The notes beneath the pieces were generated by a model. The model did not search any database. It worked only from the letters and a program-made list of their open reading frames with translations, and was not told where the DNA came from. This document shows, piece by piece, positions 6,803 to 39,892 of a DNA stretch of 64,000 bases (its first letter is position 1; each line of letters starts with the position of its first letter). Both the position numbers and the translations under genes were made by a program. Origin of the DNA: Actinomycetes bacterium (GTDB lineage: Bacteria > Actinomycetota > Actinomycetes > S36-B12); the NCBI GenBank assembly GCA_965278945.1, contig OZ257128.1:1426623-1490622 (forward strand), written 5' to 3'.

Positions 6803-6866
6803 TGTCGCGCGTCATCCTTTCTGGCAGGCCGGTTAGTGGATGATCGGCTCTCGTCGGAGGGAGTCG

Positions 6867-7190: not shown

Positions 7191-7207
7191 TCCGCGTCGA
7201 TGCGGGC

Positions 7208-8134: not shown

Positions 8135-8143
8135 CACGGGACA

Positions 8144-13103: not shown

Positions 13104-13981
13104 GACGCCGGCGACCATGGGGAGAGCAGGAAGTCCGAGAGCGCCGCGTTGAAGATATCGGGCTCCTCCCACTGCGGCCAGTGTCCGCAGCGTTCCATGA
13201 GGACGAACTCGGCGTTTGGGACCAACGCGGCTGCGCGCCGCGCGGTCTCTGCCGTCGTCGTCGGATTGTCGCTCGTCCACAGGAACAGCGTTGGCTGGAC
13301 GATTCCGGAGAGGACGTCCGGCGTGAGTGGAGCCGCCTGCTGGTTGCTCAAGCGGTTGTTTGCATCGGCAAGGACGCGGGCAGCCTCGTCCTGCTGGTAC
13401 ATCACCCAGCGGATGTCGACCAACTCATCAGTGAGACTGGCGGCGGGGTCAAAGAAGAGCCACTCCATTCTCCGACGGACCGCGTCACGGCTCGGATTGG
13501 CAACGAACTCACCAGTCAGTCGCCGTAACTCGCTGAGCCCGTCCTTCATGTGCTGACGGGACGCGTCGTCCTCCTCAATGCCGAGCCGCGCACCGCATAC
13601 TGATACGAGCTTGGTGACGCGGTCGGGATGGCGAATCGCGGTCCACATCGCAATCCACCCGCCGAGGGACTCGCCAACCAGATAGGCCTGCGTGATTCCG
13701 GCCGCGTCGAGCAGCGCCAGCAGGTGCTCCACGTAGTCGTCCAAGCCGGGAGCGGTCGAAGGGGCGTCGGTGAGACCGAATCCCAGATAGTCGACTGCGA
13801 GTACACGGAAGTCCTTGCTCAACGGTATGACGTTGCGGGCGAACGCCTCGGCGTGCCCGCCCTGACCATGAAGCAGGACAACGGCAGGACCCGAGCCCGC
13901 CTCGATGCACCGCGTACGAATGCCGCCCGCGTCGTAGTAGCGGACCTCCGCTCCCAGCAACTCGACCCAGACGGTGTTCAC
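13100..13981 (-). CDS. meta-cleavage-product (C-C bond) hydrolase, alpha/beta fold, copy 1
   Basis: It has the oxyanion motif LLHGQGG, the nucleophile elbow GESLGG, and a C-terminal CGHWPQWEEPDIFNAALSDFL typical of BphD/MhpC-type hydrolases. The GTG start overlaps the upstream stop (GTGA). Confidence 0.85.
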   Translation of the reverse strand: MNTVWVELLGAEVRYYDAGGIRTRCIEAGSGPAVVLLHGQGGHAEAFARNVIPLSKDFRVLAVDYLGFGLTDAPSTAPGLDDYVEHLLALLDAAGITQAYLVGESLGGWIAMWTAIRHPDRVTKLVSVCGARLGIEEDDASRQHMKDGLSELRRLTGEFVANPSRDAVRRRMEWLFFDPAASLTDELVDIRWVMYQQDEAARVLADANNRLSNQQAAPLTPDVLSGIVQPTLFLWTSDNPTTTAETARRAAALVPNAEFVLMERCGHWPQWEEPDIFNAALSDFLLSPWSPAS

Positions 13982-15318
13982 GACTGCTCCTTGTGATGGT
14001 TTCCGGTCGCCGCCAGAACAGGCTCAGCGTCGTCTCCGGTCGGATGAAATGCGAGGCTGGACCGCGCCGGTACCTGTCGCTCCATAAAGATCTCGCTGCC
14101 TGTGCTCGCGGACTTGAGAATCGCTAGGCACACCTCCAGCGTCGCCATCCCCCAACGCCCGTCATGGAACAACGGGCGATCCTGGACAACGGCTTCGTAC
14201 ATCTCGGTGAGCTCAGCCGTGCGACCAGTCGCGCCCTTCTCGATCGTGATCTCCTCGGCACCCCGTGAGCCGTAGACCATCAGCCCGTGCGGGCTCTGCC
14301 GGACCACGCCTTGCTCGCAGCTGACGAGCGTGTAACCGAAGTACGGCTGATACAGGCTCGGTCCCCCCGTGTAGCCGAACAGCGCCATCGTCTCGCCGTC
14401 GGCGTCCGGTGTTCCGTACCGGCCCTGCTCCTTCTGGGCATCAAGCCGCGCGTCGAGGTCATCGTCATCACGAGAGCTCGCCTTGAGGTCAAGGAAGTTC
14501 TGCCGCATACGAATCGACCTACCGACTGCTCGCTGCTGACCACCTTCTCCAATATGGCCGAACAGTTCACCGCTGTCGAAGAATCCCCTAGCATCGAAAG
14601 CGAGCAACGCGGTCGCGCCATCACGAAACGTCAGGAAGCAGTTGTAGCCAGCCTCGACTCCTCGCAGGTCATCCCAGATGACAGAGGCGCGGACGCTGTG
14701 CACTAGGCCTCCCGCAACCTGACGGACGATGTCGACCTGATGCGGACCCTGATTGAGGACCGGCCCGTGGCTCGAAACCAGTTCCCGGTTTGGCCACGGC
14801 AGGACGTTGAAGTCGTTGTAGTTGAACGTCATGACCGAGACGAGAGCGCCCAGCTCTCCGGACTCGACGAGCTCCTGCAGCCGCAGGATCGGCGGATCAA
14901 AACTGTGCGTATGCCCAGCCATGAGCTTGATGCCGCAGGCATCCGCCACCTCGATCATCTTCTCTGCGTCAGCCAACGTGGAGGCCATTGGCTTTTCGAC
15001 GATCACATGCTTGCCTGCCTGCGCGGCCAGCGTCACGTGCTCAAGTCGCTGTTCCGGGAGTGTGGCGATGTACAGCACATCGACGTCCGGATCTGCACAC
15101 AGCTCAGCGACACTCGTGTAGGCGCGGCCGCCAAATTCCTCCTGGAACATCGTCAAAGCCCCGCGGCGCTCCTCGCGCTCAGCAGCGGCGACCACGCGAT
15201 ACGGCAACTGCGCGAGCTCGGTCTTGCGACGAAGGATGAGGTTCACCGCCTGCCCGAGACCGACAAAGCCGAGACCAAGTTGGCGCTGCGGAACCTCGTT
15301 CATCTCTGTTGTCCTCAC
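13978..15318 (-). CDS. Gfo/Idh/MocA-family NAD(P)-dependent oxidoreductase, copy 1
   Basis: It has an N-terminal Rossmann region (LGFVGLGQA ... VLYIATLPEQRLEHVTLAAQAGKHVIVEKPMA). It is 446 aa long. Dihydrodiol and semialdehyde dehydrogenases such as LigC and phthalate dihydrodiol dehydrogenase belong to this family, but the substrate is not assignable. Confidence 0.85.
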   Translation of the reverse strand: MRTTEMNEVPQRQLGLGFVGLGQAVNLILRRKTELAQLPYRVVAAAEREERRGALTMFQEEFGGRAYTSVAELCADPDVDVLYIATLPEQRLEHVTLAAQAGKHVIVEKPMASTLADAEKMIEVADACGIKLMAGHTHSFDPPILRLQELVESGELGALVSVMTFNYNDFNVLPWPNRELVSSHGPVLNQGPHQVDIVRQVAGGLVHSVRASVIWDDLRGVEAGYNCFLTFRDGATALLAFDARGFFDSGELFGHIGEGGQQRAVGRSIRMRQNFLDLKASSRDDDDLDARLDAQKEQGRYGTPDADGETMALFGYTGGPSLYQPYFGYTLVSCEQGVVRQSPHGLMVYGSRGAEEITIEKGATGRTAELTEMYEAVVQDRPLFHDGRWGMATLEVCLAILKSASTGSEIFMERQVPARSSLAFHPTGDDAEPVLAATGNHHKEQS

Positions 15319-15475
15319 GTGGGGGTGACGGCTTTGCGCACGGGTGAGGCCATCAACTCGCCCCAGTAGCGGTAAAACTCACGTTGGTTCTCCTCGCTGA
15401 GCCCGTCGATGACAGTGCCAGGCCAGTTGGGGCCCTGCTCCATCAGCACCTCCCTGCCTGCGCCGAACTGACACA
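15315..15475 (-). pseudogene. 3' remnant of a Rieske oxygenase alpha-subunit gene (left behind by the duplication)
   Basis: The last 39 codons (GPNWPGTVIDGLSEENQREFYRYWGELMASPVRKAVTPT) are identical to the end of the intact gene at 19050..20414. A 135-bp in-frame deletion follows. After that come about 40 bp of degraded homology with a 2-bp indel, and then homology is lost. Confidence 0.7.
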
Positions 15476-15640: not shown

Positions 15641-16591
15641 TCAACTTTCCCTCGGTGTCCACGATCCGACCGCCATGCCCATGAGTCCGCGATAGAACGG
15701 CTCATATGTAAGGAAGTCGAGGAGGGGCTCGTCACCCAACGCGGCCAGAAGGGCAATCCAAGCCCGCAACTCCACTTGTCCGTGATCGAGTAGATCTGCG
15801 CCGGATAGTTCGCTCAGCCGTTGAGTCTGGCCGCTCGTTAACGTGTCCACGAGACTCTTATCGAAGGCCTCATCGATGTCGCCGTGCCCCATCTGGCCCC
15901 GATAACTCTTCCATGGATAGCCAGCCGTGAAATGGGACCAACCTCCCGAGGCGTAAATGGCCACCCGTTCGCCCGCAGGGCGATTCGCAGCCACGCGGGA
16001 CAACAACTCGCCGAACTGCGCGCATCGCCACGGCTCGACTGAGGGATGGTGAATGGCGTTCATGAACACTAGAACTACCGGAATGTCCGCGCGAGGCGTG
16101 ATGTTAGCTAGTACCTGTGCGTGTGCATGAGACTTTAGTTCATCGCCTTCGAACCGGCCTACCGAGGCGAGGTCGAAACCTTCGAATACGCCTTGCTCAA
16201 GGAGGTCACTCGAAAATTCGCGATGACTTGTGTACTTAGTCGACGTGGCACTCGACCTCGCCAAGGTGAACTCGGTACCCGTGTAAACTGCCAGTTGAGG
16301 GGTGTTCGCGGTACTGAAGTTCTCGTCTTGGTCATCGCCGACGACGACCAAGACGTCCGGAAGCGTGGACGCCAATTTTGCACGTATAGCCTCGAGCGCC
16401 TCTTGAATAGGCGCAAACCTCCTGCGGTTCGCCTCCAGACTCTCACGAAGGACGCCGTCCGGGGCCTTAGGCAGAAACCCATAGCGCTTCTCGAACACAC
16501 GACGGTTCCCGTCACGGTAGTAGTCCCAGTCATCGATCGGCATGAAAGTGAAGGCGTGAGAGGAGGCCAAGCCAGCCACTATCTTCCCCAT
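15641..16591 (-). CDS. class III (LigB-type) extradiol ring-cleavage dioxygenase, paralogue B
   Basis: LigB-family blocks are present (GLASSHAF, VVVGDDQDENF, SHAHAQVL, ASGGWSHF). The ATG follows GGAGGTGA. It lies in the unique spacer between the two duplicated copies. Confidence 0.8.
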   Translation of the reverse strand: MGKIVAGLASSHAFTFMPIDDWDYYRDGNRRVFEKRYGFLPKAPDGVLRESLEANRRRFAPIQEALEAIRAKLASTLPDVLVVVGDDQDENFSTANTPQLAVYTGTEFTLARSSATSTKYTSHREFSSDLLEQGVFEGFDLASVGRFEGDELKSHAHAQVLANITPRADIPVVLVFMNAIHHPSVEPWRCAQFGELLSRVAANRPAGERVAIYASGGWSHFTAGYPWKSYRGQMGHGDIDEAFDKSLVDTLTSGQTQRLSELSGADLLDHGQVELRAWIALLAALGDEPLLDFLTYEPFYRGLMGMAVGSWTPRES

Positions 16592-16722: not shown

Positions 16723-16838
16723 CTTGGGGCCGACGCCAATCGTGGACGCCGGTACGTGATCAAGTGTGGATCGACGGCTGCCTGGCGCGTGATCATTAGT
16801 GCAGCATGCGATGAGGCGAACGCGGCGACGACCGTCAT
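16723..16838 (-). pseudogene. 5' remnant of LigB-type dioxygenase A (duplicate copy, 109-bp deletion, truncated)
   Basis: It encodes MTVVAAFASSHAALMITRQAAVDP and then shifts frame. Compared with copy 1, the 109 bp between two ATCGACGG octamers are missing. Homology ends at 16723. Confidence 0.7.
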
Positions 16839-17716
16839 GACGCCGGCGACCATGGGGAGAGCAGGAAGTCCGAGAGCGCCGCGTTGAAGATATCGGGCTC
16901 CTCCCACTGCGGCCAGTGTCCGCAGCGTTCCATGAGGACGAACTCGGCGTTCGGGACCAACGCGGCTGCGCGCCGCGCGGTCTCTGCCGTCGTCGTCGGA
17001 TTGTCGCTCGTCCACAGGAACAGCGTTGGCTGGACGATTCCGGAGAGGACGTCCGGCGTGAGTGGAGCCGCCTGCTGGTTGCTCAAGCGGTTGTTTGCAT
17101 CGGCAAGGACGCGGGCAGCCTCGTCCTGCTGGTACATCACCCAGCGGATGTCGACCAACTCATCAGTGAGACTGGCGGCGGGGTCAAAGAAGAGCCACTC
17201 CATTCTCCGACGGACCGCGTCACGGCTCGGATTGGCAACGAACTCACCAGTCAGTCGCCGTAACTCGCTGAGCCCGTCCTTCATGTGCTGACGGGACGCG
17301 TCGTCCTCCTCAATGCCGAGCCGCGCACCGCATACTGATACGAGCTTGGTGACGCGGTCGGGATGGCGAATCGCGGTCCACATCGCAATCCACCCGCCGA
17401 GGGACTCGCCAACCAGATAGGCCTGCGTGATTCCGGCCGCGTCGAGCAGCGCCAGCAGGTGCTCCACGTAGTCGTCCAAGCCGGGAGCGGTCGAAGGGGC
17501 GTCGGTGAGACCGAATCCCAGATAGTCGACTGCGAGTACACGGAAGTCCTTGCTCAACGGTATGACGTTGCGGGCGAACGCCTCGGCGTGCCCGCCCTGA
17601 CCATGAAGCAGGACAACGGCAGGACCCGAGCCCGCCTCGATGCACCGCGTACGAATGCCGCCCGCGTCGTAGTAGCGGACCTCCGCTCCCAGCAACTCGA
17701 CCCAGACGGTGTTCAC
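16835..17716 (-). CDS. meta-cleavage-product hydrolase, copy 2 (protein identical to copy 1)
   Basis: The 293-aa translation is identical to that of 13100..13981. There is one synonymous difference (T at 13217 versus C at 16952). Confidence 0.85.
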   Translation of the reverse strand: MNTVWVELLGAEVRYYDAGGIRTRCIEAGSGPAVVLLHGQGGHAEAFARNVIPLSKDFRVLAVDYLGFGLTDAPSTAPGLDDYVEHLLALLDAAGITQAYLVGESLGGWIAMWTAIRHPDRVTKLVSVCGARLGIEEDDASRQHMKDGLSELRRLTGEFVANPSRDAVRRRMEWLFFDPAASLTDELVDIRWVMYQQDEAARVLADANNRLSNQQAAPLTPDVLSGIVQPTLFLWTSDNPTTTAETARRAAALVPNAEFVLMERCGHWPQWEEPDIFNAALSDFLLSPWSPAS

Positions 17717-19053
17717 GACTGCTCCTTGTGATGGTTTCCGGTCGCCGCCAGAACAGGCTCAGCGTCGTCTCCGGTCGGATGAAATGCGAGGCTGGACCGC
17801 GCCGGTACCTGTCGCTCCATAAAGATCTCGCTGCCTGTGCTCGCGGACTTGAGAATCGCTAGGCACACCTCCAGCGTCGCCATCCCCCAACGCCCGTCAT
17901 GGAACAACGGGCGATCCTGGACAACGGCTTCGTACATCTCGGTGAGCTCAGCCGTGCGACCAGTCGCGCCCTTCTCGATCGTGATCTCCTCGGCACCCCG
18001 TGAGCCGTAGACCATCAGCCCGTGCGGGCTCTGCCGGACCACGCCTTGCTCGCAGCTGACGAGCGTGTAACCGAAGTACGGCTGATACAGGCTCGGTCCC
18101 CCCGTGTAGCCGAACAGCGCCATCGTCTCGCCGTCGGCGTCCGGTGTTCCGTACCGGCCCTGCTCCTTCTGGGCATCAAGCCGCGCGTCGAGGTCATCGT
18201 CATCACGAGAGCTCGCCTTGAGGTCAAGGAAGTTCTGCCGCATACGAATCGACCTACCGACTGCTCGCTGCTGACCACCTTCTCCAATATGGCCGAACAG
18301 TTCACCGCTGTCGAAGAATCCCCTAGCATCGAAAGCGAGCAACGCGGTCGCGCCATCACGAAACGTCAGGAAGCAGTTGTAGCCAGCCTCGACTCCTCGC
18401 AGGTCATCCCAGATGACAGAGGCGCGGACGCTGTGCACTAGGCCTCCCGCAACCTGACGGACGATGTCGACCTGATGCGGACCCTGATTGAGGACCGGCC
18501 CGTGGCTCGAAACCAGTTCCCGGTTTGGCCACGGCCTGGCGTTGAAGTCGTTGTAGTTGAACGTCATGACCGAGACGAGAGCGCCCAGCTCTCCGGACTC
18601 GACGAGCTCCTGCAGCCGCAGGATCGGCGGATCAAAACTGTGCGTATGCCCAGCCATGAGCTTGATGCCGCAGGCATCCGCCACCTCGATCATCTTCTCT
18701 GCGTCAGCCAACGTGGAGGCCATTGGCTTTTCGACGATCACATGCTTGCCTGCCTGCGCGGCCAGCGTCACGTGCTCAAGTCGCTGTTCCGGGAGTGTGG
18801 CGATGTACAGCACATCGACGTCCGGATCTGCACACAGCTCAGCGACACTCGTGTAGGCGCGGCCGCCAAATTCCTCCTGGAACATCGTCAAAGCCCCGCG
18901 GCGCTCCTCGCGCTCAGCAGCGGCGACCACGCGATACGGCAACTGCGCGAGCTCGGTCTTGCGACGAAGGATGAGGTTCACCGCCTGCCCGAGACCGACA
19001 AAGCCGAGACCAAGTTGGCGCTGCGGAACCTCGTTCATCTCTGTTGTCCTCAC
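17713..19053 (-). CDS. Gfo/Idh/MocA-family oxidoreductase, copy 2
   Basis: It is identical to copy 1 except NDFNVLPW versus NDFNARPW, caused by three substitutions within 4 nt. The GTG start at 19053 overlaps the alpha-subunit stop (GTGA). An ATG at 19038 preceded by GAGGA is an alternative start. Confidence 0.85.
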   Translation of the reverse strand: MRTTEMNEVPQRQLGLGFVGLGQAVNLILRRKTELAQLPYRVVAAAEREERRGALTMFQEEFGGRAYTSVAELCADPDVDVLYIATLPEQRLEHVTLAAQAGKHVIVEKPMASTLADAEKMIEVADACGIKLMAGHTHSFDPPILRLQELVESGELGALVSVMTFNYNDFNARPWPNRELVSSHGPVLNQGPHQVDIVRQVAGGLVHSVRASVIWDDLRGVEAGYNCFLTFRDGATALLAFDARGFFDSGELFGHIGEGGQQRAVGRSIRMRQNFLDLKASSRDDDDLDARLDAQKEQGRYGTPDADGETMALFGYTGGPSLYQPYFGYTLVSCEQGVVRQSPHGLMVYGSRGAEEITIEKGATGRTAELTEMYEAVVQDRPLFHDGRWGMATLEVCLAILKSASTGSEIFMERQVPARSSLAFHPTGDDAEPVLAATGNHHKEQS

Positions 19054-20414
19054 GTGGGGGTGACGGCTTTGCGCACGGGTGAGGCCATCAACTCGCCCCA
19101 GTAGCGGTAAAACTCACGTTGGTTCTCCTCGCTGAGCCCGTCGATGACAGTGCCAGGCCAGTTGGGGCCTCCCTCGATTCGAGGTTGGTCGAGTCGAGAT
19201 CCATAGTTAAAAGGCCAATGCTTGCCTTCAGTGCTTCGCAGGTTCTGCTGAAGACGCTCAAAGTTCTCGTGGTCATCAGGTGCGAACACGCCCGCTGCTG
19301 ACTGCTGCTCCATCAGCACCTCACACTGCCTACGCCGAACTGACGCGGGAGCATCGCGGTTCACAGCGCACCACTGCCACACCTCGGTCTCGTTAGGCCC
19401 ACGTGGCATCCACATGATTAAGCCCACGCCGTCGAAAGCAGTACCCAGACCGACAATGGAGAAGTTAGGAAAGATGTTGCCGACGTGGAAGCCATACGGC
19501 ACCGGGTCAACGCCCTGCTCAGCCATTTGGCGCGAACGTGTCTCGTGGCGCTTGCGCACCCATTCGACGGCCTCTGGCCCCAACAGTTCCGCCTGCGCCA
19601 GGTCATGCTCGTAGTAGGAGTCACCAACCCGGATCTCAAGGAGACCGTGGGGCGCTCCGTGACCGTGGTTGCAGGCGACCGCAAAGCTCGTGCCCGCTGC
19701 CCTGACGTCACGACCCGGAAGAACTCCCAAACGTGGATCAATCTCGGCAGCCCGGACAGCCAGCACAGATGCGTGAGTGACCGTCACATGAGTCTGGTCG
19801 CCAGCGAAGTTCTCGGCCAGGAGTTTCCAGTTTGCTGGCATGCGGTAGCGCTGCAAGCCTGGCAGTACCTCAAGTCCACCGATGGCGTCGTCTAGCATCA
19901 TCTGCTCGAGATACCACGCGGCCTCGCCGAGGTACTCGGCTAGCCCCGGACCAACCTCGCTCCACGTTGCGAAAATCAGCCCGTGAAACTCCTCCACGCG
20001 AGGCGCACGAACCAGGCCCCACTTTGACTTGTCGAAATCCTCTCCATAGGTGATGTCCTGGAACGGCACAGCCTTTAGCGTGCCGTCGCCCGTGTAGGAC
20101 CACCCGTGATAACTGCACGTGAACGATCGGCCATTGCCGTGGTCGAACAGGCACACACGATTGCCCCTGTGGCGGCACTTATTCAGCAGCACGTTGATCT
20201 GCTCACCTGAACCACGGGTCAAAATGACCGGGTCTTCGCCCATGTACGTCGACACGTAGTCGCCACGGTGCGGAATCATGGACGTGTGGCCGACGAACAG
20301 CCAAGCCTGGCCGAAGACCCTCTCCAACTCGGCCTCGTAAGTTTCGTCTGAGAAGACGTCCTTGCTCAGCAGCCCCGCGTCGGAAGGATTGTGGTGTTCC
20401 ATTCTTGTATTCAT
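19050..20414 (-). CDS. Rieske non-heme iron oxygenase, large (alpha) subunit, paralogue 1 (intact Rieske motif; no adjacent beta gene)
   Basis: It has the Rieske motif CRHRGNRVCLFDHGNGRSFTCSYHGW and the mononuclear-iron motif ENFAGDQTHVTVTH plus APDDHENFE. The ATG at 20414 follows GGAGGC. The ORF-track start at 20471 is less likely. Confidence 0.85.
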   Translation of the reverse strand: MNTRMEHHNPSDAGLLSKDVFSDETYEAELERVFGQAWLFVGHTSMIPHRGDYVSTYMGEDPVILTRGSGEQINVLLNKCRHRGNRVCLFDHGNGRSFTCSYHGWSYTGDGTLKAVPFQDITYGEDFDKSKWGLVRAPRVEEFHGLIFATWSEVGPGLAEYLGEAAWYLEQMMLDDAIGGLEVLPGLQRYRMPANWKLLAENFAGDQTHVTVTHASVLAVRAAEIDPRLGVLPGRDVRAAGTSFAVACNHGHGAPHGLLEIRVGDSYYEHDLAQAELLGPEAVEWVRKRHETRSRQMAEQGVDPVPYGFHVGNIFPNFSIVGLGTAFDGVGLIMWMPRGPNETEVWQWCAVNRDAPASVRRRQCEVLMEQQSAAGVFAPDDHENFERLQQNLRSTEGKHWPFNYGSRLDQPRIEGGPNWPGTVIDGLSEENQREFYRYWGELMASPVRKAVTPT

Positions 20415-23927: not shown

Positions 23928-25694
23928 CTAGCCTCCGACGAGGCTGTACTTGCGCATCATTCGAAGCGCAAGAAAGGCGACTGCAGATGCGAGCGCTGCC
24001 ATGATGAGTCCGATCACTGCGGCGGACTCATAGTCACCAGCTACTGCGTACTCAAAGAGCAGCACCGACATCGTGCGCGTACCCGGAGTAGCTAGCATCA
24101 CTGTCGCAGCGATGTCTCTCATCGACATCATGAATGTGAAGACAAAGACGGTGGCAACCATGGGGATCACAAGCGGAAGCAGAATTCGTCGAAATACGAC
24201 AGTCGGGCCAGCGCCCGACATGACTGCAGACTCCTCAAGTTCGGGCGAGACCTGCGCCATCGCGCTGCGGAGCATCGCCACGCCCAGAGGGAGTTCCTTG
24301 ATAACAAGCACCACGACCAGCGGCACCAACGTTCCATAGATCAACGCGCCGACGCCCGTGCCGAGGATCAAGCTGCTCCAAGCAAAGCCCAAGAGCAGAC
24401 CCGGCACCGCCCAGGGCAGCCAACACAGCAGGGCCAGCGTGCCTGTGTAAGGCAGTTTCCTGCGCGCAATCACCCAGGCCAGGACTGCATAAAGCATGAT
24501 CCCGAGGATCGACGTGATGGATGCTACAACCAAGGAGTTACGTAACGAGTCGAGCAAGGTGGGATCGGTCAGCGTGGCCTGCCAATGCTCGGTGGTCCAC
24601 GAGCCTCGCGAGAAGAAGCCGAAGCGCCAGCGAACCGAACCGAGCAAGACGATGCTGAGTGGTAGGTAAAGACCCACCGCGAGGGCCGCGAGGATGACGC
24701 CCATCACCACCCGATCAGCCCAGCGTGTGCTTCTGACGCTTGTACGCAGACTCCGCCCGCCAACGGTCGCGACGTTGCTCCAACGCTTGCTCAGGACCTG
24801 ATTGACACCTGCTAACAGCAGGAGAGTGATGAGCATGACTACGCCCAGGGCCATCGCTTCGGAGAACAGAGGCGGGTCGGAACCTATCTGGTCGTAGATG
24901 CGAGTGGCATAGACATCGATGCCAGCCGGGGTCCCAAGGATTCGCTCAACTTCGAACACCTCGAGGCACCGCAGGAAGCCGACTACAGTCGCGGCAAGTA
25001 CCGCAAGCTTGATGAGTGGTAGGGAGATGTGCCTCAGGGTCCGGACGCGTCCTGCGCCTGACATGACCGCAGCTTCTTCCAGGGTGACGTCCATCTGCCG
25101 GAAGGCCGGAGACAGGAAGATGATCATGATCGGGACAGTGGTCAGCGTGAGGTGCACCCAAAGGAGCCCGGAAATCGAGTAGATGTTCAATGTCGGAGCG
25201 CCGGGGATGTTAGCGAGCCACTCGTTGATCAGGCCAGTGTTCGGATCCGCAAGGACGATCCAACCCAGGACCACCGGCACAGTGGGCAAGAAGAACGCAA
25301 GCCAGAGCGAGTACTCCACGAAGCGGGCGATCTTCATCTGCGTACGCGTCAAGAACCATGCGATGACCCCACCGATGATGACGGCGACGGGAACACGCAT
25401 GGCGAGGAGGAATGTGTATCCGAATGATTCGAGGGTCCGCTGTGATTGCGTCGCGTCTTGCCAGGCGTCGAGGCCCGGTTCGAACGGTTGACCAAGTCCC
25501 GCGATATTGAAGGACTGCATGACCATGAACGCGATCGGCGCGATAACGAGGAATGCGACGGCGCCGAGGAGAGCCAGTCCGCCTGCCTTTCGCAGCCTTC
25601 CGTGCAACTTCGCTCGACGGCGTGCGAGAGTCTCTCCAGACTCTCCCGATGTCGTCGCCGGCGGAGCCGGAGGAGGAGCGGTCGTCGTCACCAA
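23928..25694 (-). CDS. ABC transporter permease, fused two-domain type (about 12 TM)
   Basis: At 588 aa it contains two tandem binding-protein-dependent permease modules, each with an EAA-like loop (LEEAAVMSGAGRVRTLRHISLPL and LEESAVMSGAGPTVVFRRILLPL). The start is TTG or GTG after GGAGAGG. Confidence 0.85.
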   Translation of the reverse strand: MVTTTAPPPAPPATTSGESGETLARRRAKLHGRLRKAGGLALLGAVAFLVIAPIAFMVMQSFNIAGLGQPFEPGLDAWQDATQSQRTLESFGYTFLLAMRVPVAVIIGGVIAWFLTRTQMKIARFVEYSLWLAFFLPTVPVVLGWIVLADPNTGLINEWLANIPGAPTLNIYSISGLLWVHLTLTTVPIMIIFLSPAFRQMDVTLEEAAVMSGAGRVRTLRHISLPLIKLAVLAATVVGFLRCLEVFEVERILGTPAGIDVYATRIYDQIGSDPPLFSEAMALGVVMLITLLLLAGVNQVLSKRWSNVATVGGRSLRTSVRSTRWADRVVMGVILAALAVGLYLPLSIVLLGSVRWRFGFFSRGSWTTEHWQATLTDPTLLDSLRNSLVVASITSILGIMLYAVLAWVIARRKLPYTGTLALLCWLPWAVPGLLLGFAWSSLILGTGVGALIYGTLVPLVVVLVIKELPLGVAMLRSAMAQVSPELEESAVMSGAGPTVVFRRILLPLVIPMVATVFVFTFMMSMRDIAATVMLATPGTRTMSVLLFEYAVAGDYESAAVIGLIMAALASAVAFLALRMMRKYSLVGG

Positions 25695-25887
25695 CGGACC
25701 TACCTCTCCGAGTTGGTCGTCGCCCGCGCCCCTGGAAAGGGAGGCCTGCGGGCTCCCCGCTGGCGACTGTCTATTGGTTAGACCATATATCGGTGTGAGG
25801 TACGCCGCAAGCGAATATCCGGAGATGCCAAGGCTGTAATTGAATCGTGATGGAACCCCCCGCGAGTGGTGCCATTACCCCGTTGTA

Positions 25888-27069
25888 CTAACGCGTTCCG
25901 GTGGCAAACTGGCCGGCGTGCGAGGCCAGTTCGTCTGTCTCTAGTGCGGCGAGTGCCTGATCTTCCTTGGGGAAGATCAGCACCTGGTCAGGTACGAAGT
26001 CGACCTTGACTCGGGCTCCCCGCGTGATCCCGTCAAGCGAATGCGACCGAGCTCTTAGAAGGTTTCCTTCGACGTCGACCTGATACTCCATCGCATCACC
26101 GAGAAACTCAGCAACGCGGACGGTTCCGGTCCACGCGGAGTGGTCGGATTCGTCAGTTAGCCTCAATCGGACATGCTGGGGGCGCACCGAAACGGTCACC
26201 AAGGCATCAGCCTTGAAGGAGCCGCTCGCGACTCCTTCAAGGCTGCCCGATGTGGTTGCGACTCCATGGGACTGGCCGACGCCTCGTCCGGTAATAACAC
26301 CCGGCAAGAAATTGCTGCCGCCGATGAAGCTGGCGACAAAGGCGGACGCCGGCCGCTCGTAGATGTCCCGCGGAGGTCCGACCTGCTCGATCACGCCCTT
26401 GTTCATGACGACGATCACATCGGACATCGCCAAAGCCTCGACCTGGTCGTGAGTGACGTAAAGAGTGGTGATGCCAAGGTCCTTCTGAAGCCTCGACAAC
26501 TCGATTCGCATGCTGTCCCGCAATCGAGCGTCGAGGTTCGACAGCGGCTCGTCGAGCAGTAGCAACGGCGGTTCGAGCACCAATGCGCGCGCGAGCGCCA
26601 GGCGCTGCTGCTGGCCTCCCGAGAGTGCTGTTGCAGGACGGTCGGCGAACTGCTCCATCTGCGCGATGGCGAGTACAGCGTCGACCCGCCGGCGTAGTTC
26701 CGTCGGTGACGGTCGCTGCCCTCGAGGCATGATCTTCAGCGGGAATGCTGCGTTTTCGTACACAGTCATGTGTGGCCAGATGCCGTACGACTGGAACATC
26801 ATTCCCAGTCCCCGCTTGTTGGGCGCAATGTTGATCTTCGTCGTCGAGCAGAAGACTGCGCGGCCGCCGACGGTTATCCTGCCGGACTCAGGCAGCTCCA
26901 AGCCAGCGATAGACCTGAGCGTCGTGGTCTTGCCGCACCCGGACGGGCCGAGCAGCGTCACGAACTGGCCAGCCTCGGCCTTGAGCGAGACACCGTTCAC
27001 GGCGAACTGCGTGTCTCCGGCGGCCTGTAGGGCGGGATAGGCCTTCTTCAGAGACTCGACTTGGAGCAC
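25888..27069 (-). CDS. ABC transporter ATP-binding protein (PotA/FbpC/MalK-like, with a C-terminal regulatory/TOBE-like domain)
   Basis: It has Walker A GPSGCGKTT, the signature LSGGQQQRLALARAL, Walker B LLLLDEPLSNLD and the H-loop VTHD. The GTG start follows GGAGG. Confidence 0.9.
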   Translation of the reverse strand: MLQVESLKKAYPALQAAGDTQFAVNGVSLKAEAGQFVTLLGPSGCGKTTTLRSIAGLELPESGRITVGGRAVFCSTTKINIAPNKRGLGMMFQSYGIWPHMTVYENAAFPLKIMPRGQRPSPTELRRRVDAVLAIAQMEQFADRPATALSGGQQQRLALARALVLEPPLLLLDEPLSNLDARLRDSMRIELSRLQKDLGITTLYVTHDQVEALAMSDVIVVMNKGVIEQVGPPRDIYERPASAFVASFIGGSNFLPGVITGRGVGQSHGVATTSGSLEGVASGSFKADALVTVSVRPQHVRLRLTDESDHSAWTGTVRVAEFLGDAMEYQVDVEGNLLRARSHSLDGITRGARVKVDFVPDQVLIFPKEDQALAALETDELASHAGQFATGTR

Positions 27070-27211: not shown

Positions 27212-27535
27212 TCATCCCTGGGTCGGCGGAACGTCGACGACCAATCCGTCGAGTTCCTCGGTCACCACAATCTGGCATGATAGGCGGCTGGTCGCCCGCC
27301 GCTCCTCCACGCCCAGATCGAGCAGATCGTCCTCGGAGTGGTCGGGCTGCCCAACGGACGCAAAGTGATCGTCCCTTACCCATACGTGACAGGTAGCGCA
27401 GGACTTGTTGCCTCCGCACTCTGCAACTATGCCGCGCACGCCGTTCTTCGCGGCCGCGGCCATCACGGACTCCCCGATGGTTGCGTCGATGACACTCTCC
27501 TTGCCATCGGCCTCGACGAAGATCACCTTCGGCAT
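27212..27535 (-). CDS. [2Fe-2S] ferredoxin, adrenodoxin/putidaredoxin type
   Basis: The 107-aa product has the cysteine pattern C-x5-C-x2-C ... C (AECGGNKSCATCHV ... SRLSCQI). Confidence 0.85.
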   Translation of the reverse strand: MPKVIFVEADGKESVIDATIGESVMAAAAKNGVRGIVAECGGNKSCATCHVWVRDDHFASVGQPDHSEDDLLDLGVEERRATSRLSCQIVVTEELDGLVVDVPPTQG

Positions 27536-27674: not shown

Positions 27675-28553
27675 TCATGAGTGCGAATCCACAGCGCTGA
27701 GAACATCCTCCGCCGTGAGTAGCGCTGGATTGCGAGCGACCTCGAGTCGCTGTGCGAGCGCAGCGAGAACGATCTTTCGAACACGCCGACCGTCCCAACC
27801 GGTGCACCGCGATGAGATCTCACCATGCAGGAACTTGTCATCGGCGAGCGGTCGTAGCTCCGGCCACAGAGCAGCCAGTTCGCGGAACGACGCACGGACG
27901 ATGGCGACGATTGTTGCGGTGTCGGGAAGCGCTAGATGCAGAACGAGATCCGCACGCGAGAGAAATGCTTCATCGATTGCGGAGGGGAAGTTGGTCGTCG
28001 CCACGAACAGCACCCCCGGATGGTCCGTCGCGACGGAGTCTAGGCCCGCGAGAAGGGCGTCGGTTGCGCGGTGGACATCGACCGGGTTGGTCTCGAAGGA
28101 CGCTGTGGATCGCCGGACGGCAAGACTCTCGACCTCGTCGATCAGGACCACGGTGTGCGGTCGGCGCGCAGCCAGTTCCGGGATGGTGTCGGTCATCAGG
28201 CGCGTGACCGCTCGCTGGCTGGCCCCGAGCATCTCACTCGGAAATGCATGGGGATCGATCTCGACGTAGGTCGTTGCGCCGAGTGGTGCGAGCTCACGAG
28301 CAGCCGCCTGAGCGAGGCCTCGCGCCAGTGTCGTCTTGCCGGTCCCCGCAGGCCCAGCAAGGACGACCAGCCCGTGGGGCAAGCCGGGCAGGGTCGCCAG
28401 GCGACGACCGTGCCTCATCGTGAGAATCGCTGTCGACAGCAATCGCTCCTTGGTTCCGGGGGGAACGAAGATGTGATCCCACGGGCCGTCGTGATGGCCG
28501 GCCGGCAGCGCGTGCACTGACAGCACGCCATCAGGCATGATGTTGGACGCCAC
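27675..28553 (-). CDS. AAA+ ATPase, Pch2/TRIP13-like (Cap6-like) clade
   Basis: It has Walker A GPAGTGKT and Walker B [10 protein letters not shown]. The blocks [66 protein letters not shown] and [12 protein letters not shown] resemble TRIP13/Pch2 as I remember it. The AAA call is secure. The clade call rests on memory, not on a search. The start (GTG 28553 or ATG 28538) lies 3-18 nt after the bicupin stop. Confidence 0.75.
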   Translation of the reverse strand: [292 protein letters not shown]

Positions 28554-28556
28554 GCG

Positions 28557-29645
28557 TCAGGGCCAGGTAGGACGCTGAAGTGCTGGCCAGGTGATCGTCG
28601 ACAGATCACCGGCCTGCGCATCGCGGACCGCATCCGGGGGCTCTTCGAAGAGAACCATCGGATCCATGAGCACGCGCATCGTCTCCAGCAGGCTGTCGAA
28701 CATATGGATCCGGACGACCTTCGCGGTCCGTTCGGGATCGTCGTTGAAGTGCTGATGCCACAGGAAGTGGTCCACGACGATGATGTCGCCCTTCTCCCAT
28801 GTGTGATCCTCACCGCTGTCGGGCTCTGTGCCGAGGAAGGTGTGCCCCCTTCCCTCGACGACGTATAGCCACGCCTCGCCCGGATGCCGGTGCATCGACT
28901 GGCCGCGGCCCGGTGCGATCTCGAACATCGCCATGGTGATGCCGGACGCCTGAAAGCCGATCGCCTTGTCGAGTAGGAAAGTGGTGCGCGTTCCCCGCGG
29001 TGTCGGTAGGAGCTCAAGCTCGTCCCAGCTGGTGTGAAGGCGTCCTGACCGGCGCGCATCCTGGTCTCGGGCGAGCCGGCGAACACGACGCGCGTACGCG
29101 TCGTCACCTTCGATCGGGGCTGCATATGGCGGTCGTGGGGCGAGCGTGTCGACGGGTGCGTGCCCTCCATCCTCCTGGAAGGCCATCCCCATCGTCTCGA
29201 GCAGCGGCTCACTGGAGAAGCTCAGGAAACGACAGGTCTGGTCGGCCTCATTGCCATGTCGGTGCCAAGCCCATGCCGGCAGGTGCAGCGAGTCGCCCGG
29301 TCCCCACTCGATTCGCACGCCGTCGACCTCGGTCCATCCCCATCCGGCGACGACGAAGATCATGGCGTCCCATGAGTGACGGTGAATCGTCGACGTGACG
29401 CCGGCGTCGATCTCGTGGACGAGCGCGTCCATCGACCTCGTTGGGCGATCGCCGTCAGCGCCGACATATACGCCGCGCCTCATGCCGCGCGCGGTGTCCT
29501 GCATCTCGACGTCCGCGAGCCGCACGACTGTGTTGCGAAAGTTCCGCCACTCCTCAAGGAAGTCAGCTCGCCGCTTCTTCTGCACGTGATAGTGGGTTAG
29601 CCCGGTCTTCGTCGTGGTCATGGTCGCCCATTCGTCTATTGGCAT
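28557..29645 (-). CDS. bicupin dioxygenase, gentisate/1-hydroxy-2-naphthoate/salicylate 1,2-dioxygenase-like
   Basis: It has two cupin modules. The first reads STIHRHSWDAMIFVVAGWGWTEVDG..GDSLHLPAWAWHRHGN. The second reads QSMHRHPGEAWLYVVEGRGHTF..GDIIVVDHFLWHQHFN. The start is uncertain (ATG at 29678, 29645 or 29621). Confidence 0.75.
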   Translation of the reverse strand: MPIDEWATMTTTKTGLTHYHVQKKRRADFLEEWRNFRNTVVRLADVEMQDTARGMRRGVYVGADGDRPTRSMDALVHEIDAGVTSTIHRHSWDAMIFVVAGWGWTEVDGVRIEWGPGDSLHLPAWAWHRHGNEADQTCRFLSFSSEPLLETMGMAFQEDGGHAPVDTLAPRPPYAAPIEGDDAYARRVRRLARDQDARRSGRLHTSWDELELLPTPRGTRTTFLLDKAIGFQASGITMAMFEIAPGRGQSMHRHPGEAWLYVVEGRGHTFLGTEPDSGEDHTWEKGDIIVVDHFLWHQHFNDDPERTAKVVRIHMFDSLLETMRVLMDPMVLFEEPPDAVRDAQAGDLSTITWPALQRPTWP

Positions 29646-29758
29646 AATGGTCAGTCCACTAAGAATACACACACCCATTTCGCCGGCGCGGCCGACAGAC
29701 GAGGTACTGATCGACTGTGTGCAGGCAAATGGTAAAATAATCAGTCCAAGGAGGCGAA

Positions 29759-33940: not shown

Positions 33941-34882
33941 GTGAGCGAGTTGACGCTCAGAACCGTCACGCGGACGTCAGGAGCCAATGCGGCGCTCAAG
34001 GACGGCACGATTGCCCCCCAAGGCTTCAGCTTCGCCTTCGAAGAGGTCCCCGACCTCGTTCAAGGCTTCCGCCGGATGGTGCGCGGCCTTGAATTCGATG
34101 TCAGCGAGATGGCTCTCACGACCTACCTCGTCGCAAAAACTCACGGTGCTGAGTTCACCGCACTGCCGATCTTCCTGGTGCGCGGCTTCCACCACAATGC
34201 TATCCAGGTCCTCGCCGGATCGGGCATCAGCAGTCCTCGTGACCTCGAGTGCCGCAAGGTAGGGGTCAACCGTGGCTACACGGTGACGACCGGAGTCTGG
34301 GCGCGTGATGTGCTCTCGCAAGAGCACCGAGTCGACATCGACACCGTGACGTGGGTGCTGTCTGGCGACGAGCATGTCGAGGCATACCGACCGCCAGCGA
34401 ACGTCGTCTCGATGCCGACAGGCGAATCCCTTGAGAGCCTGCTTCGAAGCGGTGAGCTCGCAGCCGTGGTCGGAGCGAACCTGCAGGCACCAGACATTCG
34501 CCCGCTGATCTCCGACCCGACGGAGGCAGGCCTCGCGGTGCTGCAATCTCGCGGCGTCTACCCGATCAATCACCTGATCGTCGTCAAGGATGAGGTACTG
34601 AAAGCGCGGCCAGGGCTTGCAGCGCAGATCTTCGACGCGTTCGCGCTCGCGAAGCAGCCATACCTCGACCGGCTCCGAAATGGTGAGGCCATGGATGATG
34701 CCGACAGGACCTATCGGCGCGTGATGGAGATGACGGGAGCAGATCCGCTGCCGTACGGGCTCGATCCGAACCGCACGACGCTGGAGCACCTCCTCGACGC
34801 GGCCGAGCGACAGCGAATCATCGACCGGCGAGTCGTCGTTGACGACGTCTTCGCGGACGGCACGCACGAGTTGCAGGGGTAG
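33941..34882 (+). CDS. 4,5-dihydroxyphthalate-decarboxylase-like protein (periplasmic-binding-protein-like II fold, cytoplasmic enzyme family)
   Basis: The pattern EFDVSEMALTTYL, LPIFLVRGFHHNAI, DLECRKVGVNRGYTVTTGVWARDVL, YPINHLIVVKDEV and DPLPYGLDPNRTTLEHLL resembles the Pht5/OphC-type decarboxylase family as I remember it. There is no signal peptide. The family call is moderate and the substrate is unknown. Confidence 0.55.
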   Translation: MSELTLRTVTRTSGANAALKDGTIAPQGFSFAFEEVPDLVQGFRRMVRGLEFDVSEMALTTYLVAKTHGAEFTALPIFLVRGFHHNAIQVLAGSGISSPRDLECRKVGVNRGYTVTTGVWARDVLSQEHRVDIDTVTWVLSGDEHVEAYRPPANVVSMPTGESLESLLRSGELAAVVGANLQAPDIRPLISDPTEAGLAVLQSRGVYPINHLIVVKDEVLKARPGLAAQIFDAFALAKQPYLDRLRNGEAMDDADRTYRRVMEMTGADPLPYGLDPNRTTLEHLLDAAERQRIIDRRVVVDDVFADGTHELQG

Positions 34883-38506: not shown

Positions 38507-39892
38507 TGTCAACTCCTCGGCGAGACTCACGAGAAATGCCCGCGAAACGGTGAGCGTGTGGGGGGAGGAATGGGTTGTCTATGCAGTCTCGTCCCGAGGT
38601 CTCCTTCAGGTATGGCACGGCGTACGCGAGGGCGTCGAAGGTGGACAAGGGTCGGATTCTGGATGAGGTGGTGTCGGTGACGGGGTGGTCGCGTGACAAC
38701 GCCCGGCGTCGACTCGGTGTTGCCGCCAGGGCCCGACCAGGGGCTGGTCGGGCGGTCGTGAGACCGGTCCGCAAGCCGCGGTCGCCGAAGTATTCGCTCG
38801 ACGCTGTGAACGTGCTGGCGCGGGTGTGGGCGGCCTCGGGTGGGCAGTGCGGGAAGTACCTCGCGGCGTCGATGCGGATCCAGCTCGACGGCCTGGAGCG
38901 TCACGGTGAACTCCTGGCCGGCGTCAACGGGTACGGCCCGGGCGTGCGGGCCGAGCTGCTGTCGATGAGCGCGGCGTCGATCGACCGCTATCTAAAGGGC
39001 GTCAAGGCCACCGACCAGATCCGTGGCAGGAGCACCACGGAACCGTCGCCGTTGCTGAGGTCCTCCATCGCCATCCGCAGGGCCGGGGACGAGGCCGAGG
39101 CCGAGCCGGGCTTCTTCGAAGGTGACACCGTCGCGCACTGCGGTCCCACCCTCAAGGGCGAGTTCGCCCGCACGCTGAACCTCTCTGACGGCCATACCGG
39201 GTGGGTGTTCACCCGCAGCGTGCGCAACAACGCCAACGTTCACATTCTGGCCGCGCTCAAGGCCGGTATCGAGGAGATCCCGTTCGAGGTGACCGGGCTG
39301 GACTTCGACAACGGCACCGAGTTCTTGAACAAGCCCGTCATCGCCTGGGCCGCAGGCATGGAGATCTTCTTCACCCGCTCACGGCCCTACAAGAAGAACG
39401 ACCAGGCGACCATTGAGTCGAAGAACAACCACCTCGTGCGCAAATACGGGTTCTACTACCGCTACGACACCGCTGAGGAACGCGTCGTGCTGAACCGGCT
39501 CTGGGCACTGGTCAACGACCGGCTCAACTACCTGACCCCGACGAAGAAGCCCATCGGGTACGGCACCGACCGGGGCGGCCGGCGCACCCGGATCTACGAC
39601 GACCCAGCGACCCCGCTGGACCGGCTCCTGGCCGCCAGCGTCCTATCCCCTGTCCAGGCCGCCGACCTGATCGCCTACCGCGACTGCCTCAACCCCGCCG
39701 CGATCGCACGCCAGATCGCCGACCTGCAAACCGTCCTGCTCACCTTGGCGAAGGACAAGACCGAACAACTCTACCTCGCCAGCTTCCCCACCGCCCTACC
39801 CGACATCCGCATCAAAGCCAGCTGACCACATTTCGTGGGCATTCCTAACTGAGGCACCGATCAACTTTCACGGGCATATTGACTTGAGGCAC
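38507..39892 (+). mobile_element. insertion sequence carrying a single rve-type transposase gene (family uncertain; boundaries approximate)
   Basis: The ends share inverted copies of an AATGCCC(G/A)CGAAA motif (one copy on the left, two on the right) and TCGG..CTCA blocks. I could not identify a clear target duplication. Confidence 0.55.
38575..39825 (+). CDS. DDE transposase (retroviral-integrase/rve core)
   Basis: The N-terminal HTH-like region reads RILDEVVSVTGWSRDNARRRL. The DDE triad is visible in FFEGDTVAH, GLDFDNGTEF and QATIESKNNHLVR, with D-35-E spacing. It may be ISNCY/IS1202-like or IS481-like; this cannot be decided without a search. Confidence 0.8.
   Translation: MSMQSRPEVSFRYGTAYARASKVDKGRILDEVVSVTGWSRDNARRRLGVAARARPGAGRAVVRPVRKPRSPKYSLDAVNVLARVWAASGGQCGKYLAASMRIQLDGLERHGELLAGVNGYGPGVRAELLSMSAASIDRYLKGVKATDQIRGRSTTEPSPLLRSSIAIRRAGDEAEAEPGFFEGDTVAHCGPTLKGEFARTLNLSDGHTGWVFTRSVRNNANVHILAALKAGIEEIPFEVTGLDFDNGTEFLNKPVIAWAAGMEIFFTRSRPYKKNDQATIESKNNHLVRKYGFYYRYDTAEERVVLNRLWALVNDRLNYLTPTKKPIGYGTDRGGRRTRIYDDPATPLDRLLAASVLSPVQAADLIAYRDCLNPAAIARQIADLQTVLLTLAKDKTEQLYLASFPTALPDIRIKAS

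Follow-up and report, generated by a model that had tools for sequence, protein, structure and literature searches.

Why does an ATPase of a family described as remodelling HORMA proteins lie directly behind a cupin gene in a catabolic region of a bacterial chromosome? The question is posed by a 64,000-nucleotide stretch of an Actinomycetes genome (assembly GCA_965278945.1, contig OZ257128.1, positions 1,426,623 to 1,490,622; hereafter the window), whose minus strand encodes a bicupin related in fold to gentisate 1,2-dioxygenase (GDO) and, immediately downstream, an AAA+ ATPase of the Pch2/TRIP13/Cap6 clade (coordinates in Table 1). TRIP13, Pch2 and Cap6 ATPases are described in the literature that we consulted only as HORMA remodellers, in eukaryotic checkpoints and in CBASS, the system by which bacteria signal against phages with cyclic oligonucleotides, and the searchable literature holds no link between a TRIP13-type or AAA+ ATPase and a cupin or bicupin. 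The preliminary description of this DNA had called a Pch2-type unfoldase in a catabolic role undescribed, and our literature search likewise found nothing relevant. We establish here that the window ATPase represents a monophyletic, widespread and intact Trip13-clade lineage that lacks HORMA and CD-NTase partners and is locked to a bicupin gene, and we consider what the motor may do to its neighbor.

The ATPase is a member of the Pch2/TRIP13/Cap6 clade of classic AAA+ ATPases. The PADLOC model for CBASS TRIP13 (PDLC00915) matched it with 309 bits (E 6.5e-93) across residues 5 to 290 of 292, the second-best PADLOC family, IetA, reaching 41 bits, while Pfam and NCBIfam gave generic AAA matches only (Pfam AAA 74 bits; NCBIfam under cut-off). 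A phmmer search of the PDB ranked C. elegans PCH-2 and human TRIP13 first (E 6e-25 to 7e-22), with Cdc48 behind (3e-19), and with the AlphaFold2 model (pLDDT 85.6) as the query Foldseek filled ranks 1 to 13 with TRIP13, PCH-2 and Trip13 from E. coli MS115-1 (PDB ID: 6p8v). No other AAA clade (CbbX, MoxR or FtsH-like) stood closer than TRIP13 by profile, sequence or fold, a neighbour-joining tree was consistent with this, and the clade assignment of the preliminary description is therefore retained. The closest relatives in annotated records outside the bicupin-linked group, at 41 to 46% identity, are plasmid-borne and annotated 'AAA family ATPase'. They come from Polaromonas, Rhodococcus opacus, Pseudosulfitobacter, Agrobacterium and Methylobacterium, and all five are followed by two proteins of about 160 amino acids and then by a 'CBASS oligonucleotide cyclase' and an effector, the layout of two-HORMA type III CBASS. 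PADLOC applied to one of these sister operons (L045) as a positive control recovered two HORMA matches (228 and 281 bits) together with the cyclase (477 bits). Scores against PDLC00915 were 353 to 476 bits for CBASS Trip13, 285 to 316 for bicupin-linked ATPases and 205 for a haloarchaeal relative. The bicupin-linked ATPases formed one clade in 88 of 100 bootstraps of the tree, which is a crude one; its deep branches are weakly supported (33 of 100 for the nearest neighbor, and one rogue outgroup misplaced), and we therefore do not claim that this clade is nested inside CBASS Trip13.

The motor is fully equipped. When the window protein was aligned by HMMER with human TRIP13 and with PCH-2 of C. 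elegans, the motif correspondences of the preliminary description reappeared, and Walker A and Walker B, both recognized at the outset, are intact together with sensor 1 (TTN), the Arg finger (SRAD) and GR..RK in the window protein and in 120 of 120 cluster representatives, with both pore loops also preserved in essentially all; the representatives, more than 120 in all, span genera at 70 to 98% identity. These alignments begin at about residue 126 of PCH-2 and TRIP13. Only 25 residues of the window ATPase precede the W-D entry to the AAA module, so the reported want of an adaptor-binding N-domain is correct, but it is normal in bacterial Trip13, the CBASS proteins likewise having none, and is no peculiarity of this locus. 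Pore loop 1 reads EMLG, against SSAMGKTQR in CBASS Trip13, which is also non-aromatic, and SKWFSESGK in eukaryotes. In pore loop 2, the His of the motif NPVD(V/I)HRATDA is common to the bicupin-linked ATPases and CBASS Trip13; His161 of the window protein aligns with the residue numbered His173 in E. coli Pch2 by Ye et al. and with Ile in eukaryotes. Four further full-length Trip13-like representatives (P0253, P0268, P0275 and P0277), 49 to 52% identical to the window ATPase, carry a pore loop 1 like that of the bicupin-linked type and no HH motif, one of them (P0268) beginning MGEHGHGD; judged by sequence, they may be further client types or a transition to CBASS.

The pairing with the bicupin is close to universal. 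In 20 of 20 genome or long-contig loci found via the ATPase and retaining upstream DNA, a bicupin 60 to 84% identical to that of the window lies directly upstream on the same strand; these loci span Pseudonocardia, Actinoplanes, Mycolicibacterium wolinskyi, Kibdelosporangium, Blastococcus, Amycolatopsis, Actinophytocola, Acidimicrobiia and a Burkholderiales metagenome-assembled genome (MAG). Look-ups that started from the bicupin met the pair in four of four cases (Streptomyces, Micromonospora and two contigs as long as complete genomes). A metagenome scan returned at least 462 relatives of the ATPase, and metagenome loci with at least 150 nucleotides of upstream sequence carried the bicupin there in 75 of 76 instances, the exception (L072) having 163 nucleotides only, which encode the C-terminus of an insertion sequence (IS) transposase-like protein at the contig end. 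Divergent relatives were reached by a search from P0256, chosen from a 50%-identity representative library among relatives that are 47 to 49% identical and have His-rich N-termini; here too a bicupin of 344 to 351 amino acids lies directly upstream of the ATPase in four of four look-ups, the genes overlapping by a few nucleotides in three of the four loci. Compared with the window, these divergent bicupins are 46 to 55% identical and the three ATPases compared 49 to 55%. The flanking genes vary widely among the pair loci, one of which (L053) shares nothing but the pair, and because the flanks differ the two genes can be said to move as a unit. The cupin-ATPase synteny that was to be looked for in relatives is thus conserved in all but one of the loci surveyed.

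The customary partners of Trip13 are missing. A PADLOC scan of 62 open reading frames (ORFs) in the window found TRIP13 but no HORMA, cyclase or Cap protein, and tblastn with the HORMA1, HORMA2 and cyclase sequences of the five sister operons found nothing in either the window or the 104 related loci searched, bearing out the early remark that neither HORMA nor CD-NTase genes occur in the window. Orthologues of the ATPase or bicupin were found neither among PLSDB plasmids nor among IMG/VR contigs, and megablast of the window against plasmids returned IS transposase matches only. One locus (L022, 8978-10865) looked at first like a pseudogene copy, both bicupin and ATPase being split, but the adjoining Amidohydro_2 gene of this long-read MAG is frameshifted as well, and the frameshifts are therefore probably errors of sequencing or assembly.

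The bicupin has a candidate handle for the motor at its N-terminus. The ORF is open from 28557 to 29678 on the minus strand, the coordinates first assigned to the gene, but translation almost certainly starts at ATG 29621 and not at 29678, because exactly nine residues precede a [T/S]-H-Y motif in 88 of 101 family representatives. The resulting tail is of fixed length with the consensus M-[ATS]-[TS]-[RK]-T-T-T-x-[VT]-[TS]-H-Y-H; Thr occupies positions 5, 6 and 7 in 97, 87 and 99% of representatives, respectively, and Ser or Thr occupies position 3 in 93%. The tails of the divergent lineages show pure alternation (MATKTKTETSHWH, MATRTRTELSHWH and VATRTRTGTSHWH). The HORMA2 proteins of the sister CBASS operons have N-termini that resemble the bicupin tail (MTTVAVNTYTHSVTY, MSTSTSTTTYTRTH and MSTSTSTTTYTRTHTATH), whereas two other cupin families from the same clusters, taken as controls, begin MGKKGRVFVRG and MAKDALVSENL and have no ladder. 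E. coli Trip13 grips the disordered N-terminus of its HORMA substrate, pore-loop-2 His173 of successive subunits hydrogen-bonding Ser3, Ser5 and Thr7; HORMA tails keep Ser or Thr at alternate positions, and deletion of the tail abolishes remodelling (Ye et al., bioRxiv 10.1101/694695). The Ser/Thr positions 3, 5 and 7 of the bicupin are those of the HORMA residues S3, S5 and T7 that His173 contacts. These parallels strongly suggest that the Thr ladder is the handle by which the ATPase would engage the bicupin, and ladder and pore-loop His together, although read from sequence, are the most specific evidence for the bicupin as its client.

The bicupin is GDO-like in fold. Both of its HxH...H metal sites are invariant in 30 orthologues, His80, His82 and His120 align with the Fe ligands of GDO, and gentisate and salicylate dioxygenases are the solved structures that match it best, in sequence (18 to 22% identity) as well as in Foldseek. 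At this distance, and with 64 bits against the GDO model TIGR02272 (cut-off 442), the label of ring-cleavage dioxygenase is not established; of the original designation as a gentisate-dioxygenase-like bicupin we keep the fold and the two complete metal sites. The score against the MabB model NF049978 was 72.5 bits (cut-off 650). The ALRF block of GDO aligns with AMIF in the window protein, which has no Arg there; in GDO and salicylate 1,2-dioxygenase (SDO) this Arg binds the substrate carboxylate. Foldseek matches of the bicupin model include MncA, a cupin well known for trapping whichever metal it folds around. In the AlphaFold2 model (pLDDT 75.6), residues 1 to 9 form a low-confidence coil followed by a helix at residues 10 to 27, and confidence is low as well for the last 45 residues, which are conserved. 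In the annotation of the Joint Genome Institute (JGI) the ATPase is called 'pachytene checkpoint protein 2' and the family of the bicupin 'gentisate 1,2-dioxygenase', so that automatic annotation has recognized both halves of the pair.

A possible reason for remodelling a cupin comes from histidines in the ATPase. His20 and His21 are invariant within the window ATPase clade and absent from CBASS Trip13; the motif LP..HH..PWD is present in 120 of 120 representatives, and pLDDT below 50 at residues 18 to 21 indicates a flexible loop. Among the bicupin-linked ATPases, 120 of 120 and 97 of 100 representatives carry an H..H cluster, compared with none of five CBASS Trip13 proteins, and this is the most conspicuous difference between the two groups. 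Its position is lineage-specific, lying just before the AAA module as LPADHHDGPWD (window type), LPAEHHDKDWD or LPGPHSHDG, or, in other lineages, at the extreme N-terminus within the first 30 residues as MGHGHHHEEELP, MTGHGHGHDDEELP or MTHHVEHGHHTDELP (HGHGHDDEELP type). In the HHDKD/HHDRD subclade, to which the Burkholderiales MAG belongs, 52 of 59 complete ATPase genes add a His-rich C-terminus of the form GGVEW..AAPSSKELFPDVP..L[K/M]HDHDHGHGH..HHH; these are all of the tails found among 102 complete genes overall, and none of the 36 complete genes of the window's HHDGP type has one. The same subclade has a characteristic neighborhood: an IclR regulator, a substrate-binding protein (SBP) followed by a NicO-family permease and divergent from the pair, the pair itself, and TctC, TctA and TctB. 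The permease (Pfam 43 bits; gathering threshold 27.7) is present at 21 loci, every one of which belongs to this subclade, and contains KHGLDPDH, which we take to be the HX4DH signature of NiCoT permeases.

Two observations on these metal-related neighbors may be recorded separately. In the 21 loci (for example L089 1143-2950, L096 1151-2847 and L077 1086-2728) the SBP gene, of SBP_bac_6/8/11 type, overlaps and precedes the permease gene, which suggests an SBP-dependent secondary transporter of Ni/Co type; this SBP is 31 to 36% identical to the SBPs of the ABC (ATP-binding cassette) importers that adjoin the pair in Actinomycetota. Locus L168 encodes a 213-amino-acid single cupin with a His-rich C-terminus (PAHDHAHEHEHTSTTLSAGAHAHEHQH; 1739-2380) in a cluster with three more cupins, two of them paralogues of the partner bicupin family, upstream of one Trip13-like ATPase.

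We propose that the ATPase would be a hexameric remodeller of the Trip13 (Cap6) clade in which the bicupin from the gene just upstream has taken the place of the HORMA client. Both proteins would be made together from one transcript. The central pore of the hexamer would grip the disordered, Thr-laddered N-terminus of the bicupin, His161 in pore loop 2 reading alternate Thr side chains much as E. coli Trip13 reads HORMA tails, and a few rounds of ATP hydrolysis would pull out the N-terminal helix and loosen the cupin barrel. This transient opening would most likely serve the insertion, exchange or removal of the buried catalytic metal, which could be handed over by the His cluster of the ATPase near the substrate-entry side. 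From the features described above we infer hexamer formation, tail engagement, partial unfolding and a metal purpose, the last because the His clusters, the His tail, the NicO-like permease and the invariant cupin ligands point the same way when taken together; the maturation or repair of bicupin metal centers is a plausible purpose. We are evenly divided on whether the ATPase is an ATP-driven maturase or reactivase, dedicated to the bicupin and threading its tail so that the metal center can be loaded, exchanged or repaired. The preliminary description had arrived at a dedicated metalloenzyme remodeller, and the ladder, His clusters, His tail and NiCoT-like permease lend that inference circumstantial support. 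A more specific version, in which a Trip13-family hexamer with evolutionary ties to the CBASS HORMA remodellers acts as an ATP-driven unfoldase-metallochaperone that threads the bicupin tail by the Ser/Thr-ladder and pore-His code, briefly opens the barrel, and supplies or proofreads the buried Ni, Co or Fe with the aid of its own His cluster, is offered tentatively, as something we would sooner doubt than assume.

Several points weigh against this proposal. Ser/Thr-rich N-termini are not rare in Actinomycetota; the contact between ATPase and bicupin is deduced from sequence, the structure models being of monomers only; and across 70 paired loci the HH motif of the ATPase and the T-H-Y-H motif of the bicupin showed no covariation. 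The source genome calls the window bicupin at 362 amino acids, and an upstream start would move the Thr ladder off the extreme N-terminus. The ATPases of the window subclade lack the His-rich tail, and a NicO-like gene is neither within reach in that subclade nor detectable in the window itself, which leaves the HH pair and homology as this copy's link to metal; the NicO match itself, although over the Pfam threshold, is far under that of NCBIfam. To our knowledge, characterized GDO-type bicupins load Fe(II) without helpers.

Remodelling of the bicupin for a purpose other than metal is the alternative that fares best, and we regard it as unlikely but deserving of serious attention. Like Rubisco activase or Trip13 itself, the ATPase might free the bicupin from a tight inhibitor or dead-end product, or switch its oligomeric or conformational state. 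The pairing, the ladder and the intact motor fit this equally well, conformational switching and disassembly of complexes being the ancestral job of Trip13, and the low-confidence C-terminal 45 residues of the bicupin are what one would expect of a segment that folds on a partner. The absence of a His-rich tail from the window ATPase also agrees with it. Such a role would leave unexplained, however, why a His cluster is present in every bicupin-linked lineage and in no CBASS relative, and why one subclade adds the HDHDHGH tail and a NiCoT-like permease.

We think it improbable that the bicupin is instead a metal-binding or buffering protein of a metal-acquisition module, from which the ATPase would release kinetically trapped metal on demand by unfolding the cupin. 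The most deeply conserved companions of the pair are indeed transporters and not catabolic enzymes (an Fbp/Pot/PhnS-type ABC importer with fused permease, an EntS-like MFS_3 protein, and the SBP with the NicO-like permease), each bicupin chain has two complete metal sites, and L168 encodes another cupin with a His-rich tail. But NCBIfam names none of the transporters as a metal importer, and since the ABC importer, the SBPs, the NicO-like permease and TctC all score under cut-off no substrate or metal can be assigned to them; the pair usually lies amid aromatic-acid catabolic genes (LigK, above cut-off, Amidohydro_2, Rieske oxygenases and TctABC), and the closest solved relatives of the bicupin are dioxygenases. 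We give similarly little credence to the idea that the bicupin is a co-regulated neighbor only and that the ATPase really serves some other protein, for instance part of a transporter or another enzyme of the pathway. The link between ATPase and bicupin is known from genes alone, and the ABC importer and MFS_3 are frequent neighbors as well; against this, the bicupin alone adjoins invariably, its stop overlapping the ATPase start or lying a few nucleotides from it even where every other neighbor differs, and bears a Trip13-type Ser/Thr ladder that the control cupins of the same clusters do not. Finally, although the nearest relatives are CBASS Trip13 proteins in normal HORMA/CD-NTase operons and PADLOC files the ATPase under TRIP13, a stranded or decaying remnant of type III CBASS, or a part of an unrecognized defense system, is effectively refuted by the essentially universal synteny with the bicupin (a partner fixed in more than 100 loci), by motifs intact in 120 of 120 representatives at 70 to 98% identity across genera, by the absence of HORMA, cyclase and effector and of plasmid or viral-contig orthologues, and by the metabolic surroundings.

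Table 1. Features of the bicupin-ATPase locus and adjoining genes (positions in the window).
Feature	Position	Strand	Remarks
Trip13/Cap6-clade AAA+ ATPase	27675..28553	(-)	292 amino acids from GTG 28553; identified by Pfam AAA (74 bits), PADLOC TRIP13, PDB phmmer and Foldseek
ATPase N-terminal His-cluster motif	28476..28508	(-)	residues 16-26; LPADHHDGPWD
Walker A, GPAGTGKT	28332..28355	(-)	residues 67-74
Pore loop 1	28212..28250	(-)	residues 102-114; non-aromatic
Walker B, VVLIDEVE	28128..28151	(-)	residues 135-142
Pore loop 2 with His161	28056..28088	(-)	residues 156-166; identical in 119/120 representatives
Sensor 1 (TTN, 186-188) to Arg-finger block AFLSRADL (196-203)	27945..27998	(-)	
GRRVRK, sensor-2 region, lid domain	27774..27791	(-)	residues 255-260
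Spacer, bicupin stop (TGA) to ATPase GTG	28554..28556	(-)	3 nucleotides, shared frame; reads P-T-W-P-TGA-cgc-GTG
GDO-like bicupin	28557..29621	(-)	354 amino acids from ATG 29621; ORF open to 29678; two Cupin_2 matches (Pfam)
Bicupin N-terminal tail, MTTTKTGLTHYH	29586..29621	(-)	conserved Thr ladder; proposed handle for ATPase pore loops
Metal site, cupin barrel 1: H80-R-H82-S-W-D85 ... W-H120	29262..29384	(-)	
Metal site, cupin barrel 2: H244-R-H246-P-G-E249 ... W-H289-Q-H291	28749..28892	(-)	
[2Fe-2S] ferredoxin	27212..27535	(-)	downstream; not conserved beside the pair elsewhere
ABC importer: fused permease (588 amino acids) and ATPase with TOBE_2	23928..27069	(-)	type recurs by the pair in many lineages

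The two ORFs adjoin on the same strand, as had been described. The source genome starts the ATPase at ATG 28538, 15 nucleotides inside the GTG, giving 287 amino acids. The commonest spacings between bicupin and ATPase among relatives are -4, +2 and -1 nucleotides, the metagenome mode (extrapolated) being -4, and we found no terminator-like or minus-strand promoter-like sites between 27100 and 29950. Downstream, the same strand carries, in the order already reported, the ferredoxin, the ABC ATPase, the fused permease, Rieske alpha and beta subunits, an SBP and a second Rieske alpha subunit. The window forms an aromatic-acid catabolic island with two LigB-type dioxygenases, an Amidohydro_2 protein, a LigXa-like Rieske oxygenase, a LigK/PcmE aldolase (above the NCBIfam cut-off), lower-pathway genes of DmpFG type and a GntR/FCD regulator; from 51 to 64 kb it encodes ordinary metabolism.

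The clusters contain other items of interest. A second pairing of a cupin with an ATPase-like protein occurs in the same clusters (L001 4061-6902; L054 11402-13068; L048 1-1250), where a cupin of 362 to 377 amino acids, about 25% identical to the bicupin, is directly followed by an EutA-like protein of 487 to 533 amino acids that matches the NCBIfam EutA reactivating factor with 291 bits, under cut-off; this protein may be another ATP-dependent cupin helper. In the window itself, a 313-amino-acid protein (33941-34882, plus strand) matches nothing in Pfam or NCBIfam, recurs in about 10 related loci and is 33% identical (E 2e-47) to the product of a 330-amino-acid gene directly downstream of the ATPase in L166 and L167; we presume a resemblance to the 4,5-dihydroxyphthalate decarboxylase (NMT1-fold) family. 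Positions 13033-15434 and 16768-19169 form a 2.4-kb direct duplication, 99.8% identical, that is either very recent or an assembly artefact; it carries an alpha/beta hydrolase (293 amino acids) and a GFO_IDH_MocA oxidoreductase (446 amino acids), and each copy adjoins a LigB-type gene (12213-13280 and 15641-16591). An IS-type integrase gene (rve; 38575-39825, plus strand) has an unusually high third-position GC content (GC3) of 0.88 and is 75 to 79% identical to plasmid-borne DDE transposases from Rhodococcus, Mycobacterium and Gordonia, and the segments 6840-8988 and 60083-60718 (GC3 0.84 to 0.89) look foreign. A bulk PADLOC scan also matched window ORFs to mad3 (E 1.6e-31) and to mad8 (E 1.7e-10), the latter in two ORFs that include the ATPase.

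If the proposal is right, a TRIP13-family ATPase would for the first time have a client that is not a HORMA protein, and an enzymatic client of this kind would show the Trip13 motor and its tail-recognition code to be portable. The lineage, which is large, conserved and abundant in soil, would then be a concrete case of traffic between a defense-system component and core metabolism. Should the purpose prove to be metal, partial unfolding to load a metal, or to correct a kinetically trapped one, would constitute a new route of metalloenzyme maturation; it would also draw attention to an uncharacterized bicupin family of aromatic-acid clusters whose heterologous expression may fail without the ATPase. 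An unfoldase-metallochaperone, in particular, would be an enzymatic answer to the tendency of cupins to trap whichever metal is present when they fold. For annotation, defense-finding tools will label such genes TRIP13 or CBASS despite the absence of CBASS.

Set beside known systems, the ATPase is nearest to CBASS Trip13/Cap6, with which it is 41 to 46% identical and colinear throughout and shares the Walker, sensor and Arg-finger motifs, the lack of a large N-domain, the non-aromatic pore loop 1, the pore-loop-2 His and a (putative) client with a disordered, Ser/Thr-laddered N-terminus. It differs in having no HORMA, CD-NTase or effector, in its bicupin upstream where CBASS has HORMAs downstream, in the clade-specific His cluster and, in one subclade, the His-rich C-terminal tail, and in being chromosomal, vertically conserved and metabolic in context. 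Eukaryotic TRIP13 and Pch2 are the best solved-structure matches (Foldseek TM score 0.68 to 0.80) and have the LIDEVESL and AF..RAD blocks in common with it; unlike them, the window ATPase has no N-terminal adaptor-binding domain of about 100 residues, reads EMLG for KWF in pore loop 1 and His for Ile in pore loop 2, and has neither a HORMA client nor a p31comet-like adaptor in the window. The bicupin shares its fold and the Fe-ligand His residues of barrel 1 with gentisate and salicylate 1,2-dioxygenases (PDB IDs: 3bu7, 2d40 and 2phd); at 18 to 22% identity it differs from these in AMIF for ALRF, in a second barrel that is complete and invariant, and in its unique Thr-ladder N-tail and RPTWP C-terminus.

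Two groups of accessory proteins offer functional analogies. His-rich metallochaperones such as UreE, HypB, CooJ and the nitrile-hydratase activators resemble the bicupin-linked ATPases in their flexible His/Asp-rich peptides (HDHDHGHGH, HGHGHDDEE) and, for one subclade, in the NiCoT-type permease alongside; they are GTPases or small dimeric proteins and not AAA+ unfoldases, and in the window ATPase the His feature is reduced to the HH pair. The Rubisco activases Rca, CbbX and CbbQ-CbbO, together with NorQ-NorD and CoxD, are AAA+ motors encoded beside the enzyme that they remodel, several of them building or freeing a metal site, and we know of none reported to act on a cupin. The MoxR-type members (CbbQ, NorQ and CoxD) work with VWA partners; the window ATPase is of another type (AAA_5 23 bits, classic AAA 74 bits), and no VWA protein appears in any neighborhood table of the pair loci. 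What the window ATPase has in common with these activases and maturases is the arrangement itself, a putatively dedicated motor encoded next to an enzyme.

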